Of a stretch of DNA of 64,000 nucleotides, positions 29,964-37,241 are shown piece by piece. This DNA comes from an archaeon. Lineage in GTDB: Archaea; Nanobdellota; Nanobdellia; Pacearchaeales; GW2011-AR1. Both the position numbers and the translations under genes were made by a program. Below the pieces are notes generated by a model. The model ran no database searches. It was not told where the DNA came from and saw only the letters and a program-made list of their open reading frames with translations. The DNA lies in NCBI GenBank assembly GCA_024653565.1, contig JANLIK010000015.1, positions 21,289 to 85,288 of the forward strand, in the 5' to 3' direction. Each line of letters begins with the position of its first letter. The first letter of the stretch is position 1.

Positions 29964-30364
29964 AAAGACCAATATTTCTAACTATTAACATCCAAAATTA
30001 TAGGAATCTCCTAATCCTCTGTCACTATTAAAGGACAACATAATCGAAAGATTTTTAAAGGGGTTTTTTTATAAATATTCATACAAAAGTAGTAACATAA
30101 TGCGAAAGCATACCGCTCGAACGACATCTGTCGTTCTTCGTACCACATATTTCACCTTAGCGACACTCCAGAAACACAGCGGAACACCCTCGAAATCAGT
30201 TAGAAATAACCGATTTCAACAAAGGGTATCATTCTTCTATGTAGCTAGAGCTTTACTAAAGACAGGGTTTTCCGTCGAGAAATCACCAATTTCACGTCGG
30301 TAAATCAGTGAAATACCTATATGTTACTACTTGAGTCCTAGTTCTTGATAGAAATAAGAAGTCA

Positions 30365-30499
30365 CTCTAACCCACCACACCTTCCAAGGTGCGCCTGGTT
30401 CTAAGCCCAGGAACTTGCATGGTGCAAGAAGTCAAGCGAGAAAACACTCGTTGTGTAATCTCGTGGGAAGAGAGTAAGCTCATGCTCGCAAGAGCGGAA
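30365..30499 (+). promoter_or_regulatory. 135-nt leader/promoter element, copy 1 (133 of 135 nt identical to 31232..31366). It ends in the SD AGCGGAAGGAAGAAT
   Basis: Direct repeat seen in the sequence. Contains the palindrome CTTGCAtggTGCAAG. Confidence 0.6.
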
Positions 30500-30510
30500 G
30501 GAAGAATCCC

Positions 30511-31137
30511 GTGAAGCGCATCCTGTTCGCACTGGCCCTCATCGCCAGCCTGACCCTCACCGGGTGCATGACCGATCGCCACCAGAACTGCGACCGCCAC
30601 GCTCTCGACCGGCCGACCACGACCCTGACAGTCGTTCCGGCCCCGACCCCTGTTGTTCCGGCTCCGGTGCCCGCCCCCAGGCCGGCCCCGGTCGTCTACA
30701 CTTCCTCCCTCCCCACCTCGGGAGAGTGGACCCTCGACGGATGGAACGTGGGAGCCATCCGGATCATCAAGGGCAAGGAACTCCCAGTCAACATCTGGTT
30801 CGAGGCCTACGACGCGAGCGAGCAGCGAATCCGCTGCGAACAGCAAGTCGACAAGGCCACCGCAGAGAACCTGTGCAACCTGTTCCGGAACGGCTGTCCG
30901 CTGTGGCTGGAGTTCACGACGAAGGACGCCAAGTTCCTCCGGCGAGGAGACGACAACATGACCATCTGGACGACGGACTTCGAGTTCGCCAAGATGGAGA
31001 AGGTGGACCCCCGCGGAGAGGACCCAAAGGGAGCCCAGCCCATCCAGCGGACCCCTGCCGGAGTCGGTCAGGCACCCGCGGCCACCCCTCCCGGGAAGAC
31101 ACCCGCAGGTATCGCCGCCCCAGTCAAGAACCCGTAG
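30511..31137 (+). CDS. Bacterial-type lipoprotein with a Pro-rich linker. GTG start
   Basis: Signal peptide with lipobox LTLTG-C, Pro/Ala-rich segment, G+C-rich codon usage, and a strong SD upstream. Confidence 0.6.
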   Translation: MKRILFALALIASLTLTGCMTDRHQNCDRHALDRPTTTLTVVPAPTPVVPAPVPAPRPAPVVYTSSLPTSGEWTLDGWNVGAIRIIKGKELPVNIWFEAYDASEQRIRCEQQVDKATAENLCNLFRNGCPLWLEFTTKDAKFLRRGDDNMTIWTTDFEFAKMEKVDPRGEDPKGAQPIQRTPAGVGQAPAATPPGKTPAGIAAPVKNP

Positions 31138-31160
31138 CTTCGGCGACGGCGTGCACCAAT

Positions 31161-31230
31161 GGGCCCGGTGCTATACAAATAGGGCCCATCATTTCTACAA
31201 CCAAGCTCTTCGGCCGGAGGGACGAAGAGC
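31161..31230 (+). terminator. Conserved post-gene element, copy 1 of 2: GGGCCCGGTGCTATACAAATAGGG ... GCTCTTCG-loop-CGAAGAGC hairpin
   Basis: Copy 2 at 34346..34417. An 8-bp GC-rich stem seen in the sequence, but with no trailing T-tract. Confidence 0.45.
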
Positions 31231-31231
31231 G

Positions 31232-31366
31232 CTCTAACCCACCACACCTTCCAAGGTGCGCCTGGTTCTAAGCCCAGGAACTTGCATGGTGCAAGAAGTC
31301 AAGCGAGAAAACACTCATTGTGTAATCTCGTGGGAAGAGAGTAGGCTCATGCTCGCAAGAGCGGAA
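31232..31366 (+). promoter_or_regulatory. 135-nt leader/promoter element, copy 2, immediately upstream of the MVP-like gene
   Basis: 133 of 135 nt identical to 30365..30499. Confidence 0.6.
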
Positions 31367-35795: not shown

Positions 35796-35806
35796 GGGAG
35801 GGAAGT

Positions 35807-35844
35807 CAGCACGACCAAGCCCCTCCCCCCAAAGACAACTGCGG
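35807..35844 (+). terminator. GC hairpin CCCCTCCCCCC-loop-GGGGGGCGGGG immediately after the aminopeptidase stop
   Basis: Inverted repeat seen. Near-identical copy at 37177..37214. Confidence 0.5.
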
Positions 35845-36066
35845 GGGGCGGGGCCGACCACAACATCAGGAGAAACTCCCGAAGTGAATTACATCGGTGA
35901 CATTGGAATCCTCCTCTTCTTCGGAGCCGGCCTGTGGGCGATACTTCGAGTGAAGAAACATCCCAGAACTCGGAGGTAGATTCCTCACCCCTATGACACT
36001 AGTCATCATGGGAGTGAACCCACAAGACTAGTTGCTCGGCTGAAAAGCCAAGCGGAAGGAAGAATC

Positions 36067-37158
36067 ATGAGCTCCGACCAGGCGATTCTGAATCGCCTAG
36101 AAGCGGCAAGCGTACAACTCGAAGCGCTCCGGAACAGTCGGGTTCTCCCACACTACACCGGCAGCGACTTCCAGCTGGCTCTGCTCCTCACTCTCCTCGA
36201 ACTGGGGGACGAAGAGCTAGTCCCTCGACTCGTGAGGGCGGAACAGCAGCGTCGGCGACTTCACACCCACATCATGGGCCTCGACGGACCCGTGAACCTG
36301 ACGCTCGCCCTCTTCAACAAGGACGAGCCCATGGAGGGAGAAGAACCATCCAAGGGAGGCTGCCCTCACATCGGCAAGGACGGCAAGTGCCGGGAATGCA
36401 CTCAGGAAGAAACGAACGAGTGCAACAACTGCGACTCGCTCTTCCCCCATTCCCGTCTGACCCCTTGCAAGGATGAGGACTGCGAAGCGGCCTACTGCGA
36501 CGACTGCAAGGACCAGAACCTCGACGAGAACGGCTACTGCGAGGACTGCCGCGAGTTCGAGTGCAACAGCTGCAACAACACATTCCCTCGCGAGTCTGCC
36601 ATTCACTGCAACCGAGACAAGGAGTGCAAGTCCCAGGAAACCTACTGCAAGGCATGCGCACAGAAGTGTCTCGACGGCGAAGGTCTGTGCGCGGACTGCA
36701 GTAAGGATGAGTGGGTCGACTGCAACAACTGCGACGAGAACATCAACATCAAGAAGGTCACCTTCTGCAAGGGGAATCAGGAAGGCTGCAACACGGCTTA
36801 CTGCCCCCACTGCAGGGACGACAACCTCGACAAGGGTGGCTACTGCGGAAATTGCCGCGAGTTCGAGTGCGACATCTGCGGCATGACCTTCCCTCGCGAG
36901 TCTGCCATCAACTGCAAGGGAGAGGGATGCAATTCCAGACGCTACTGCAAGAAGTGCGCGAGGAGACTCCTCAACTCACAAGGAGAGTGCATGAGCTGCA
37001 GTAGGGAAGACGAGATCACCTGCGACGGCTGCCAGAACATCTACACCAAGTCGCAGACCACCCGCTGCAGAGGAGAGGACTGCGAGAAGGACTTCTGCAA
37101 GAAGTGCGCCCCCGGCCACCTCACCAACGGCAAGTGCGAGGACTGCGAAGACAAGTAA
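36067..37158 (+). CDS. Multi-CxxC zinc-ribbon-like protein with three internal ~90-aa Cys-rich repeats (363 aa)
   Basis: About 40 cysteines in CxxC pairs. Triplicated module C..C..F..S..C...YC..C...G.C..CREFEC..C..FPRESAI.C; the N-terminal ~90 aa are Cys-free. SD AGCGGAAGGAAGAATC precedes the ATG. Confidence 0.65.
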   Translation: MSSDQAILNRLEAASVQLEALRNSRVLPHYTGSDFQLALLLTLLELGDEELVPRLVRAEQQRRRLHTHIMGLDGPVNLTLALFNKDEPMEGEEPSKGGCPHIGKDGKCRECTQEETNECNNCDSLFPHSRLTPCKDEDCEAAYCDDCKDQNLDENGYCEDCREFECNSCNNTFPRESAIHCNRDKECKSQETYCKACAQKCLDGEGLCADCSKDEWVDCNNCDENINIKKVTFCKGNQEGCNTAYCPHCRDDNLDKGGYCGNCREFECDICGMTFPRESAINCKGEGCNSRRYCKKCARRLLNSQGECMSCSREDEITCDGCQNIYTKSQTTRCRGEDCEKDFCKKCAPGHLTNGKCEDCEDK

Positions 37159-37176
37159 TTCGTCGTCGACGCAACC

Positions 37177-37214
37177 AAGCCCCGCCCCCCAAAGACAACT
37201 GCGGGGGCGGGGCC
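37177..37214 (+). terminator. GC hairpin GCCCCGCCCCCC-loop-GGGGGCGGGGC after the Cys-rich gene
   Basis: Inverted repeat seen. Paralogous to 35807..35844. Confidence 0.5.
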
Positions 37215-37241
37215 GCACCCTTCACAAGAAAAGGAAAGATT

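Follow-up and report, generated by a model that had tools for sequence, protein, structure and literature searches.

The locus analysed here raises the question of how a block of four G+C-rich genes came to lie in the A+T-rich chromosome of a DPANN-type archaeon, and of how genes with long leaders and Shine-Dalgarno-like sites might be expressed there. Within the window, the whole 64 kb stretch of DNA that was analysed, which comes from a DPANN-type archaeon MAG, GC is 0.62 across approximately 30365-37220 compared with 0.34 in the flanks; it climbs over about 30365-30500 from 0.27-0.41 to 0.56-0.75 and comes back down between 37220 and 37440. GC3 is 0.80-0.91 in the island genes compared with 0.24-0.35 in nine flanking host genes. 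An earlier note had described a strongly G+C-rich block of about 7 kb with G/C-ending codons, and both profiles agree with this, except that its start moves from 30100, which is the ATG of a 67-aa ORF behind a host-type TATA box, to 30365. The flanks are, as that note also had it, A+T-rich with leaderless-type genes: the host starts (53 examined) have, immediately upstream of the ATG, a TATA box at around -25, and they lack the purine-rich RBS-like motif. Neighbouring genes are archaeal, with FEN1 and PolB on the right and host-type leaderless genes on both sides. The island is genuine: it was acquired horizontally by an A+T-rich DPANN-type archaeal chromosome and has not yet drifted to host composition. 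Its four ORFs (g1-g4), all on the + strand, agree with the NCBI gene calls, and the same four proteins are found, in unchanged order, in two deposited assemblies, where they have consecutive NCBI accessions (MCR4284633-636 and MCR4323431-428); these two sets could stem from overlapping data. The genes and the features at the left edge are:

30064..30077, + strand: host-type TATA-like box TTTTTTTATAAATA, 23 nt 5' of the ATG at 30100
30100..30303, + strand: candidate 67-aa ORF of intermediate GC in a leaderless arrangement, read from the sequence; 3-periodicity not evident
30511..31137, + strand: g1, 208 aa, predicted lipoprotein and ORFan; lipobox MKRILFALALIASLTLTG followed by C; no Pfam match
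31378..34317, + strand: g2, 979 aa, major-vault-protein (MVP) homolog; Pfam Vault_3 and MVP_shoulder
34515..35795, + strand: g3, 426 aa, M29 (PepS/AmpS-type) aminopeptidase; Pfam Peptidase_M29
36067..37158, + strand: g4, 363 aa, Cys-rich with an internal repeat; AF2 pLDDT 86; rare CPR/DPANN-associated family

The box at 30064..30077 has the type and spacing seen upstream of the 53 host genes and is a candidate promoter from which transcription could run on into the island.

Purine-rich RBS-like motifs (GCGGAAGGAAGAAU, GCGGAAAGAAG, GGAGGAAGGAAAU) lie 4-9 nt 5' of all four island starts, and a GC-rich hairpin follows each of g1, g2, g3 and g4, so that the strong Shine-Dalgarno and 3' hairpin previously ascribed to every gene are indeed present. 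The description of these signals as 'bacterial-style' holds for the RBS and the lipobox only, because the hairpins lack a U-tract and neither an intrinsic terminator (GC hairpin plus U-tract) nor a sigma-70 promoter (-35/-10 hexamers) was detected on the + strand inside the island. The cassettes are modular, as had been claimed, and the intergenic regions prove to be reiterated modules, a repetition that the earlier note overlooked. The island is thus a one-strand cassette array assembled from reiterated parts: leader A, g1 and hairpin pair T1 in the first cassette; leader A, g2 and hairpin pair T1 in the second; leader B, g3, hairpin T2 and a small membrane ORF in the third; and leader C, g4, hairpin T2 and a small membrane ORF in the fourth. 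These parts are:

30365..30504, + strand: leader A copy 1, 140 nt, twister-like core; predicted cleavage 30368/30369; then RBS GCGGAAGGAAGAAU
31161..31230, + strand: T1 module copy 1, from repeat and hairpin analysis; not a canonical terminator
31232..31371, + strand: leader A copy 2, twister-like core; predicted cleavage 31235/31236; then RBS GCGGAAAGAAG
34346..34417, + strand: T1 module copy 2; hairpin 1 at 34346-34372, hairpin 2 at 34392-34417
34417..34503, + strand: leader B, type-P1 twister candidate 5' of g3; predicted cleavage 34421/34422
35819..35854, + strand: T2 hairpin copy 1, GCCCCUCCCCCC-AAAGACAACUGC-GGGGGGCGGGGC
35884..35979, + strand: small ORF A, 31 aa, putatively coding from its sequence; AGGAG upstream
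35980..36066, + strand: leader C, structured 5' leader of g4; ends in RBS GCGGAAGGAAGAAU
37179..37213, + strand: T2 hairpin copy 2
37242..37379, + strand: small ORF B, 45 aa; AAGGAAAG upstream
37398..37432, + strand: terminal hairpin; downstream come A-rich sequence and the TATA box belonging to the following host gene (ATG 37478)

In the first T1 module, hairpin 1 (31161-31187) has the loop CTATACAAATA and hairpin 2 (31205-31230) reads GCUCUUCG-GCCGGAGGGA-CGAAGAGC with no U-tract; the loops of the T1 modules are the only A+T-rich patches inside the island. Small ORFs A and B would each encode a single hydrophobic helix, with a tail that is basic in A and charged in B, and the position of B after T2 matches that of A. 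Given small ORF B and the hairpin at 37398-37432, the island unit probably continues to about 37435, with the terminal hairpin as its probable right end. No other copies of any island module were found in the sequence collections scanned.

The leaders carry most of the argument. The two copies of leader A, 5' of g1 and g2, form a 140-nt direct repeat with 98% identity, and sequence and covariation together identify a twister ribozyme core in the leaders of g1, g2 and g3. A descriptor of this core (UAA, 4-bp P2, 4-bp P4, L4 U-NNN-N-AGC, P2', then N-A-revcomp(NNN)), drawn up after the leader sequences had been inspected, matches leaders A1, A2 and B only on both strands of the 64 kb, with zero matches in a further 216 kb from other loci and 0.006 per shuffled island. 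P2 covaries between leaders A and B (CCAC/GUGG vs UGCA/UGCA), and the pseudoknot T1 (PK2), formed by three L4 bases and the L1 3' strand, is UCU/AGA in leader A and CCG/CGG in leader B; these changes are compensatory, since both sides depart from the consensus CCC/GGG. Taking the catalytic positions of twister from PMC11662667 and PMC5408937, the N^A step with the general-acid A and the following A reads CUCU^AAC in both copies of leader A and CCUU^AAU in leader B. The general-base G, the first nucleotide of the L1 3' strand, is found in GACGG of leader B and GAAGA of leader A, where it requires P2 to be CCAC/GUGG and one extra nucleotide (C) in the L1 5' strand. At the conserved L2 GC position of pseudoknot T2 (PK1) both leaders have AC, with the GC of L4 retained; the CHiTA authors used 'NC' as their PK1 search criterion, but found imperfect PK1 pairing to be often harmful. 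The unconstrained MFE fold of leader B has twister topology and reproduces P1-P5, and in this leader the 3' strands of P1 and of pseudoknot T1 share sequence with the RBS of g3 (GGAGGAAGG). No twister core was found in leader C.

Compared with twister type P1 (Rfam RF03160; Roth et al. 2014), the leaders share the U^AA motif, the 4-bp P2, a P4 closed by the U-NNN-N-AGC L4, the pairing of the L1 3' strand G-A-NNN with L4 (pseudoknot T1/PK2), the optional P3 and P5 hairpins, placed as expected, and an MFE fold of the family topology. They differ in their non-consensus yet mutually compensating L4 and L1 bases, in the AC rather than GC of PK1, in the extra L1 nucleotide and extra hairpin of leader A, in scoring under the Rfam threshold, and in lying directly 5' of the RBSs of consecutive genes in an archaeal genome. 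The two copies of leader A, as well as leader B, may be catalytically active.

These leaders could instead be ordinary structured 5' UTRs, duplicated regulatory DNA whose likeness to twister is fortuitous or vestigial, with a promoter for each cassette. Leader B scores 32.2 bits against RF03160 (E=5.8e-4 in 7.7 kb) and so does not reach the gathering score of 67.2, leader A gives no match to the Rfam twister model even at E<=10 and its multi-stem fold has a z-score of only -1.8, PK1 is non-canonical (AC), and a TATA-like loop lies in the T1 module some 20-25 nt 5' of hairpin 2, all of which would suit such a reading. Against this, the Rfam covariance model does not score the pseudoknot, two unrelated-looking leaders have one multi-stem topology and core in common, with compensatory P2 and pseudoknot changes, all three catalytic-site nucleotides are kept, and the descriptor matches nothing else in 280 kb. 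We regard the ordinary-leader explanation as possible but, on balance, unlikely.

Returning to leaders that act as ribozymes, we envisage that a single long transcript covering the whole island would start from the host-type TATA box (30064-30077), internal promoters not being recognised, and that the ribozymes would cleave at U^AA just 5' of g1, g2 and g3. After cleavage, the upstream message would end in the stable T1 hairpins and the downstream message would start with a defined 5'-OH leader bearing the Shine-Dalgarno-like site; with mRNA ends defined by cleavage, the cassettes would therefore act as insulated monocistronic units in a foreign host. Leader C, without a ribozyme core, is a point against this processing model, and the T1 module loop TATACAAATA could itself be a TATA box, which counts against a single promoter. 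The explanation as a whole, comprising an acquired island, reiterated cassettes, twister-led processing and a partnership of g2 with g4, has in our judgement slightly better than even chances. Its stronger form, a natural ribozyme-insulated multi-gene platform in which twister-class ribozymes 5' of RBSs together with 3' hairpins give separate protected mRNAs, is put forward only tentatively and may well be wrong. The ribozyme-processed cassette architecture is possibly novel. It resembles synthetic ribozyme insulators (RiboJ-type hammerheads and twister-based devices; PMC5052635) in having a self-cleaving ribozyme that separates the RBS from what lies upstream, with the ORF and then a 3' hairpin behind it, but the island is natural and resides in an environmental genome, and its cleavage and purpose are predicted only.

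The route by which the island was acquired left few traces. The island and its neighbourhood yielded no integrase, recombinase, transposase or tRNA target, nor any flanking direct repeats or terminal inverted repeats, this renewed search agreeing with the first reading, which saw no integrase, transposase or flanking direct repeats, and no donor genome was found in the collections scanned. We considered an integron cassette array and rejected it, there being no integrase in the annotated neighbourhood and the 3' hairpins being of two unrelated GC-rich types that are not attC-like; a classical genomic island or integrative element was also rejected, with integrase or recombinase, tRNA target and direct repeats all absent. 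Autonomous cassettes of deviant composition resemble phage morons. The island shares with genomic islands and such morons its sharp compositional deviation, self-contained 5' and 3' signals and genes unrelated to host core functions, but integrase, tRNA target, direct repeats and a prophage around it are all missing, and its cassettes share reiterated leaders and 3' hairpins.

This likeness is one reason to consider a virus or plasmid remnant, or 'moron'-like cargo, in which the leaders and hairpins would be the promoter, UTR and terminator modules of the element rather than processing ribozymes. In line with this, the g4 homolog P0242 (the top non-self match by score) lies on a one-strand phage-like contig that carries a tRNA, upstream modules in repeated copies and a weak match to Phage_GPO_N, and MVP homologs, to which g2 is 36-37% identical, occur in huge phages of 462-735 kb; bioRxiv 10.1101/2023.11.10.566534 describes phage MVPs as well. 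Capsid, terminase, replication and integrase genes and att-like repeats are, however, absent in or next to the block, phage and plasmid records match only a 137-bp conserved M29 stretch, and IMG/VR holds no g4 relatives, so we consider this origin improbable. The proposal concerns origin, and is compatible with active ribozymes.

Whether the four acquired genes belong together is best judged from their relatives. The layout of g2 comprises MVP repeats, an SPFH-type shoulder, a long cap-helix-like coiled coil and an acidic/Gly-rich insert, with Pfam matches to Vault_3 (43.8 bits, cut-off 28.8, E 2.9e-11) and MVP_shoulder (79.9 bits, cut-off 25, E 1.9e-22). Its residues 523-847 are collinear with rat MVP 458-800 (PDB 4hl8/4v60; E=7e-17), a span that includes the cap-helix coiled coil; g2 is probably a major-vault-protein/SPFH-type scaffold. 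Its best non-self relatives are 35-44% identical, those with names being all bacterial. With prokaryotic and viral MVP homologs (bioRxiv 10.1101/872010; bioRxiv 10.1101/2023.11.10.566534; Asgard PMC12962969), of which more than 1700 prokaryotic ones lie at about 35-44% identity, g2 shares the Vault_3 repeat, SPFH-type shoulder and long C-terminal coiled coil; it differs in its length of 979 aa with the acidic/Gly-rich insert, in residing on a foreign island in a DPANN-type archaeon, and in its link to a tandem zinc-finger family, of which we found no mention in the retrieved literature.

That family is represented by g4, in which an N-terminal helical domain is followed by tandem PHD/RING/LIM-like zinc modules with profile matches (PZP/LIM/RING) that are all weak. 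It has 58 non-self representatives (59 including g4) in 1.84e9 proteins. An MVP-like gene lies directly upstream of the metagenomic homolog P0243, with a Band_7 gene beside it; a homolog in a Doudnabacteria MAG has a 640-aa Band_7 protein and TelA nearby; and PspC and an NfeD-like gene adjoin an archaeal homolog. Large Band_7/MVP-like, TelA, PspC and NfeD-like genes recur beside this family as in SPFH/stomatin-NfeD, PspA/PspC and TelA neighbourhoods, although g4 lacks SPFH, NfeD and Psp domains and is an uncharacterised PHD/RING/LIM-like array; an SPFH or MVP gene is present in only three of about ten independent g4-family neighbourhoods. These neighbourhoods elsewhere partly support g4 as a recurrent partner of g2.

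The remaining two genes are less readily tied in. The signal of g1 (MKR-ILFALALIASLT-LTG, then C) has a basic n-region, a hydrophobic h-region and an [LVI][ASTVI][GAS]C lipobox in a rule-based reading of the translation, in agreement with the bacterial lipobox (LTLTGC) noted before; Pro-rich linkers flank a small beta domain (AF2 pLDDT 44), and 5.8e9 proteins yielded only the self match. g3 matches PF02073 over profile positions 1-406 of 406 (385.6 bits, E 3e-115), with its closest non-self relative 46% identical. M29, g1 and g4 are absent from the MVP neighbourhoods examined (three bacterial, two huge-phage), and MVP is absent from the neighbourhood of the closest M29 relative. Both g3 and g1 may be co-transferred passengers.

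The earlier note had likened the four genes to a shell-plus-cargo nanocompartment operon, with the M29 aminopeptidase and zinc protein as candidate cargo or partners; in such a model the MVP homolog would form the shell that packages them. Whilst the repeats, shoulder and cap helix of MVP are all kept in g2, MVP-like or SPFH genes are repeatedly found next to relatives of g4 and an overlapping M19 dipeptidase gene lies downstream of one bacterial MVP homolog, the full set is syntenic nowhere else examined and g1 has no homologs. Beyond the island only the g2-g4 pairing recurs, M29 and g1 co-occurring with neither gene in the loci examined, and the aminopeptidase, unlinked to MVP in every other locus examined, is unsupported as cargo. 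The zinc protein keeps its place as a candidate MVP partner through the P0243 contig and the Doudnabacteria MAG, but the contexts of the g4 family point to membrane/SPFH stress modules (Band_7, TelA, PspC, NfeD-like) and not to lumenal cargo, which leaves a packaged compartment doubtful at best. We know of no prokaryotic vault particle that has been demonstrated experimentally.

Finally, an assembly or binning artefact, in which a G+C-rich bacterial fragment was mis-joined into an archaeal contig or represents contamination, is very unlikely: composition changes very abruptly at 30365, where a repeat unit also has its edge, the RBS and lipobox are bacterial in style and no integration signature was found, but host-type sequence on both sides, within a contig of up to 369,652 bp, means that two independent mis-joins would be needed, a one-off chimera is improbable because identical proteins recur in order under two accession series, another G+C-rich block lies 8.6 kb from the island in the same contig, and a contamination check found the four genes contiguous in no bacterial genome, close relatives of all four proteins being absent from bacterial genomes and metagenomes (42-49% identity at best in 5.8 billion sequences, none for g1) with no DNA match in the collections scanned.

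An acquired island of ribozyme-led cassettes, with g2 and g4 as partners, would bear on several questions. A DPANN-type archaeon is now added to the carriers of MVP homologs, and the g4 family, as a recurrent MVP-like/SPFH partner in CPR/DPANN, offers a lead on what prokaryotic vault-like proteins do. The island also provides a clean example from nature in which to ask how genes with long leaders and Shine-Dalgarno sites can be expressed in a host with leaderless mRNAs; if the proposed mechanism is true, G+C-rich, Shine-Dalgarno-dependent foreign genes, including a vault-protein/zinc-finger pair, could work in a leaderless A+T-rich DPANN archaeon. Twister ribozymes are widespread and have nearly no assigned functions; to our knowledge they have been reported from bacteria and eukaryotes only, and the island would then be the first occurrence in an archaeal genome. 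Here two divergent twister-like copies coincide exactly with the junctions between cistrons, 3' hairpins lying upstream and RBSs downstream of them, a placement which gives twister a testable role in polycistronic mRNA processing and cassette insulation and, if the mechanism holds, would provide these ribozymes with a defined biological role.

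The core reading of the earlier note, that the G+C-rich block is a foreign island made of modular cassettes, stands, and its description of the block proved accurate with respect to the step in base composition, the reading frames, their Pfam domains and the lipobox. A 1-kb profile gives a GC plateau of 0.58-0.63 at 31-37 kb, compared with 0.31-0.41 almost everywhere else in the window, and at 100-nt resolution the upward step lies at ~30365-30500 and the downward step at 37220-37440. The four large + strand ORFs match the deposited gene calls and have GC3 values of 0.80-0.91, versus 0.24-0.35 in nine flanking genes. 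The island is compositionally un-ameliorated, yet strongly diverged from all sampled sequence. Its features, with those that border it, are as follows.

30064-30077: host-type TATA box, with an ATG at 30100, 290 bp 5' of the first leader
30365-30504 (+): leader A, first copy (A1), 140 nt, before g1
30511-31137 (+): g1, predicted lipoprotein; no Pfam match; N-terminus, MKRILFALALIASLTLTG followed by C, conforms to the lipobox rule
31232-31371 (+): leader A, second copy (A2), 140 nt, before g2
31378-34317 (+): g2, major vault protein (MVP) homolog; Pfam Vault_3 and MVP_shoulder
34417-34500: leader B, before g3
34515-35795 (+): g3, aminopeptidase; Pfam Peptidase_M29, full-length
35884-35979: small ORF A, after the first T2 copy, encoding a single hydrophobic helix
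36067-37158 (+): g4, Cys-rich protein; Pfam gives a weak RING-like signal at most
37242-37379: small ORF after the second T2 copy, encoding a single hydrophobic helix
37398-37432: terminal hairpin, before the promoter of the next host gene
3' of g1 and of g2: module T1, two hairpins
3' of g3 and of g4: module T2, hairpin GCCCC(U/G)CCCCCC-AAAGACAACUGC-GGGGG(G)CGGGGC

A single-sequence structure model of g1 (pLDDT 44) was too poor for use. The modular cassettes had been recognised in the earlier note, whilst the reiteration of the intergenic regions themselves had gone unnoticed. The two copies of leader A are 98% identical. T1 hairpin 1 takes the form GGGCCC-loop-GGGCCC, its CTATACAAATA being the sole AT-rich patch in the island, and T1 hairpin 2 is GCUCUUCG-GCCGGAGGGA-CGAAGAGC. 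Given these reiterated modules, the island can be written as the array (A-g1-T1)(A-g2-T1)(B-g3-T2-sORF)(C-g4-T2-sORF), on one strand throughout, where C is the leader before g4.

In a permissive Rfam scan over 29900-37600, leader B was the single match, scoring 32.2 bits (E=5.8e-4) against the type-P1 twister ribozyme, far short of that model's gathering score of 67.2; the covariance model ignores pseudoknots in scoring. Its unconstrained minimum-free-energy fold gives P1, P2 (UGCA/UGCA), P3, P4 (CCGG/CCGG, with loop UCCGCAGC) and P5. Relative to the consensus, L4 changes from UCCC to UCCG and the L1 3' strand from GAGGG to GACGG, and these changes compensate each other for pseudoknot T1 (PK2, distinct from module T1). 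Leader A has the same topology despite its unrelated-looking sequence: its L4 hairpin is CCUGG-UUCUAAGC-CCAGG, and its L1 3' strand (GAAGA) complements the L4 of the same leader (UCU/AGA), a second, different compensated version. Both leaders retain the general-acid A with the next A (U^AA), as well as the general-base G as the first nucleotide of the L1 3' strand; the catalytic positions are those reported for twister (PMC5408937, PMC11662667). Since MAFFT was unable to align leaders A and B structurally, we replaced a covariance model with a twister-core descriptor, hand-written after the leader sequences had been seen. It returned exactly three sites (A1, A2 and B) on both strands of the 64-kb window; a further 216 kb of other loci gave no match, and the rate in shuffled versions of the island was 0.006 per sequence. 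Even at E<=10, leader A has no match among the Rfam twister models; it also requires one additional L1 nucleotide and has an additional hairpin. Both leaders carry AC where the twister family conserves GC (pseudoknot T2, or PK1), and imperfections in this region often lower activity (PMC11662667). Leader C has no twister-like core. Judged from their sequences, leaders A and B quite probably contain a twister-class motif; that these candidate ribozymes would be catalytically active in vivo is less certain.

The island genes have long G+C-rich leaders with purine-rich ends 4-9 nt before the start codon (GCGGAAGGAAGAAU for g1 and g4, GCGGAAAGAAG for g2 and GGAGGAAGGAAAU for g3). Of 53 host genes, nearly all lack such a purine-rich motif and have a TATA-like box (tttataaa or ttttaaa) ~22-30 nt 5' of the ATG, the layout of leaderless mRNAs. 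The signals of the island had been described as bacterial in style. A consensus scan found neither + strand sigma-70 promoters nor hairpin-plus-U terminators in the island, so this description fits the lipobox and the ribosome-binding sites but does not extend to transcription signals.

The predicted cleavage sites of leaders A2 and B begin precisely at the end of T1 hairpin 2, which, taken together with the lack of recognisable internal promoters, suggests a single transcript that is cut into pieces. Beyond these sequence features, we infer each of the steps involved. One transcript would start from the host-type promoter near 30070 and would be cut at 30368/9, 31235/6 and 34421/2. Every upstream mRNA would then end in a pair of stable hairpins and a 2',3'-cyclic phosphate, and every downstream mRNA would begin with a 5'-OH leader that has its own ribosome-binding site, with g3, small ORF A and g4 remaining on one RNA that would end at T2. 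Alternatively, the TATA-like loop of T1 hairpin 1 may represent an archaeal promoter for each cassette. The ribosome-binding site of leader B shares its GGAGG with the 3' strands of pseudoknot T1 and P1, and that of leader A lies ~30 nt farther downstream, so a consistent ribozyme-RBS switch is not indicated.

An assembly chimera or contamination could also place such a block in an A+T-rich contig. The island is, however, enclosed by host sequence within a contig of up to 369,652 bp, with genes for an archaeal FEN1/XPG nuclease, a family-B DNA polymerase, a ZIP transporter, an RsmB-type methyltransferase and a methionine aminopeptidase on its right flank. Each of the four island proteins has two NCBI accessions, in the consecutive runs MCR4284633-636 and MCR4323431-428, so the same four genes were deposited in the same order in two assemblies. 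Protein searches gave no plausible contaminant genome, given that relatives are distant or absent: a search of 5.8 billion proteins yielded non-self relatives with identities of at best 35-44% for g2 and 46% for g3, and none for g1, and the g4 family amounts to 58 non-self representatives (59 including g4) among 1.84 billion proteins. The host flanks, the two accession runs and the missing contaminant candidate argue against both artefacts.

As the earlier note had stated, and as domain and repeat searches bear out, there is no integrase, transposase or flanking direct repeat in or beside the island, nor a tRNA target or terminal inverted repeats. Without a recombinase or terminal repeats, an integron or transposon was rejected, and so was retro-integration at a ribozyme cut, because the two copies of leader A remain homologous for at least 4 nt 5' of the predicted cut. 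PADLOC gave no match to a defence system. Against phage and plasmid records, blastn of the island returned a 137-bp conserved M29 segment and nothing else, and pattern scans for T1 hairpin 2 in metagenomes and for the leader A L4 hairpin and T2 in viral contigs gave no matches.

No donor can be named from the protein and DNA searches. The named g2 relatives are about equally distant and belong to Myxococcota, Gemmatimonadota, Planctomycetota, Riflebacteria and other groups. The nearest g4 fragment (49% identical) comes from a 58% GC soil contig, and P0242, among the closest g4 homologs, lies on a phage-like, one-strand contig that has repeated upstream modules of its own. Taken together, these data make a mobile-element origin of the island plausible but unproven. 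Logan contig SRR25508629_79105 (13.6 kb, 56% GC), which carries a g4 homolog, is probably a phage; its called genes are nearly all on one strand, with one small ORF opposite, and almost all lack a Pfam match. It also has a tRNA (1632-1702), a weak Phage_GPO_N match and repeated ~80-nt modules 5' of genes, for example at 2990-3068 and 4400-4477.

The window holds a second G+C-rich block (45660-47125, +; GC 0.55-0.60), which begins 3' of a host-type TATA box (~45630) and is closed by a long GC hairpin with a T-run behind it (47068-47145). No ORF in it exceeds 110 aa, codon periodicity is absent, Rfam gives no match, and its fold gives z=-3.5 on the + strand and z=-0.7 on the - strand. As it has neither significant similarity to the island nor coding periodicity, we rejected a decayed cassette, and the block is probably an uncharacterised structured RNA of ~1.4 kb. 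Immediately after each G+C-rich block, just 3' of a TATA box, stands TATAGTRCACTATRYAG (37458-37474 and 47149-47165), which occurs nowhere else in the window (two matches versus 0.34 expected; 5 of 100 shuffles reach two). Elsewhere, a 1043-aa ORF without a Pfam match (21702-24833, +) consists in part of ~15 tandem ~35-aa repeats of the type QC.DG.DNDGDG..D, which appear in the DNA as repeat families D1-D3, D5 and D9, and a tandem duplication (26301-26867 and 27300-27881, 81-82% identity) spans two membrane-protein genes (26370-27206 and 27369-28220) with their nearly identical promoters.

Residues 523-847 of g2 align to residues 458-800 of rat MVP, a span that takes in the final repeats, the shoulder and the cap helix; together with its Pfam domains, this makes g2 a genuine MVP homolog. 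It has >1700 prokaryotic homologs, and MVPs are on record for bacteria, phages and Asgard archaea (bioRxiv 10.1101/872010; bioRxiv 10.1101/2023.11.10.566534; PMC12962969). Homologs in huge phages of 462-735 kb are 36-37% identical to g2; the A+T-rich genomes of the 735 and 462 kb phages (LR756501.1 and LR756500.1) encode full-length ones. The gene content had been likened to a nanocompartment operon of shell plus cargo. M29, g1 and g4 are absent from the neighbourhoods of three bacterial and two phage g2 homologs, and PspA lies upstream of one bacterial MVP homolog. In GCA_964651475.1 (locus positions 8001-11551) a bacterial MVP homolog overlaps a downstream M19 dipeptidase gene by 4 nt, the sole other MVP-peptidase adjacency among the loci examined. 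In the other loci examined neither M29 nor g1 is linked to MVP or SPFH scaffolds, so the shell-plus-cargo reading is mostly unsupported, with weak support for g4 only, through the neighbourhoods of its homologs elsewhere.

The predicted structure of g4, a confident model (pLDDT 86), has an N-terminal helical domain followed by tandem zinc modules, which only weakly resemble PHD/PZP, LIM and RING fingers. Other members of this rare family come from a further 'archaeon' MAG and from MAGs of Saccharibacteria and Doudnabacteria. The full alignment was too divergent for locus finding, and a trimmed alignment gave four genome loci, two metagenome loci and no viral loci. The g4 homologs have the following neighbours.

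ENA contigs ERZ1426827/ERZ1426847: directly 3' of a 565-aa MVP-like gene and beside a 644-aa Band_7 gene
Doudnabacteria MAG JAHFJJ010000010.1 (locus positions 5182-10504): TelA adjacent, and a 640-aa Band_7 protein two genes away
Archaeal MAG and related contigs: preceded by two PspC genes and by a weak NfeD-like gene

At three of ~10 independent loci a g4 homolog has a large SPFH or MVP gene no more than two genes away, and about six other loci have no SPFH-type neighbour. This seems far above chance, and on the strength of gene order we take g4 to be a recurrent partner of these scaffolds. The setting of g4-family, Band_7/SPFH, TelA and MVP-like genes looks like an undescribed conserved neighbourhood of CPR and DPANN-like genomes. 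What is new here is the candidate twister-class leaders at cistron boundaries, together with a zinc-finger family that may be a partner of the MVP-like scaffolds with which it is associated.
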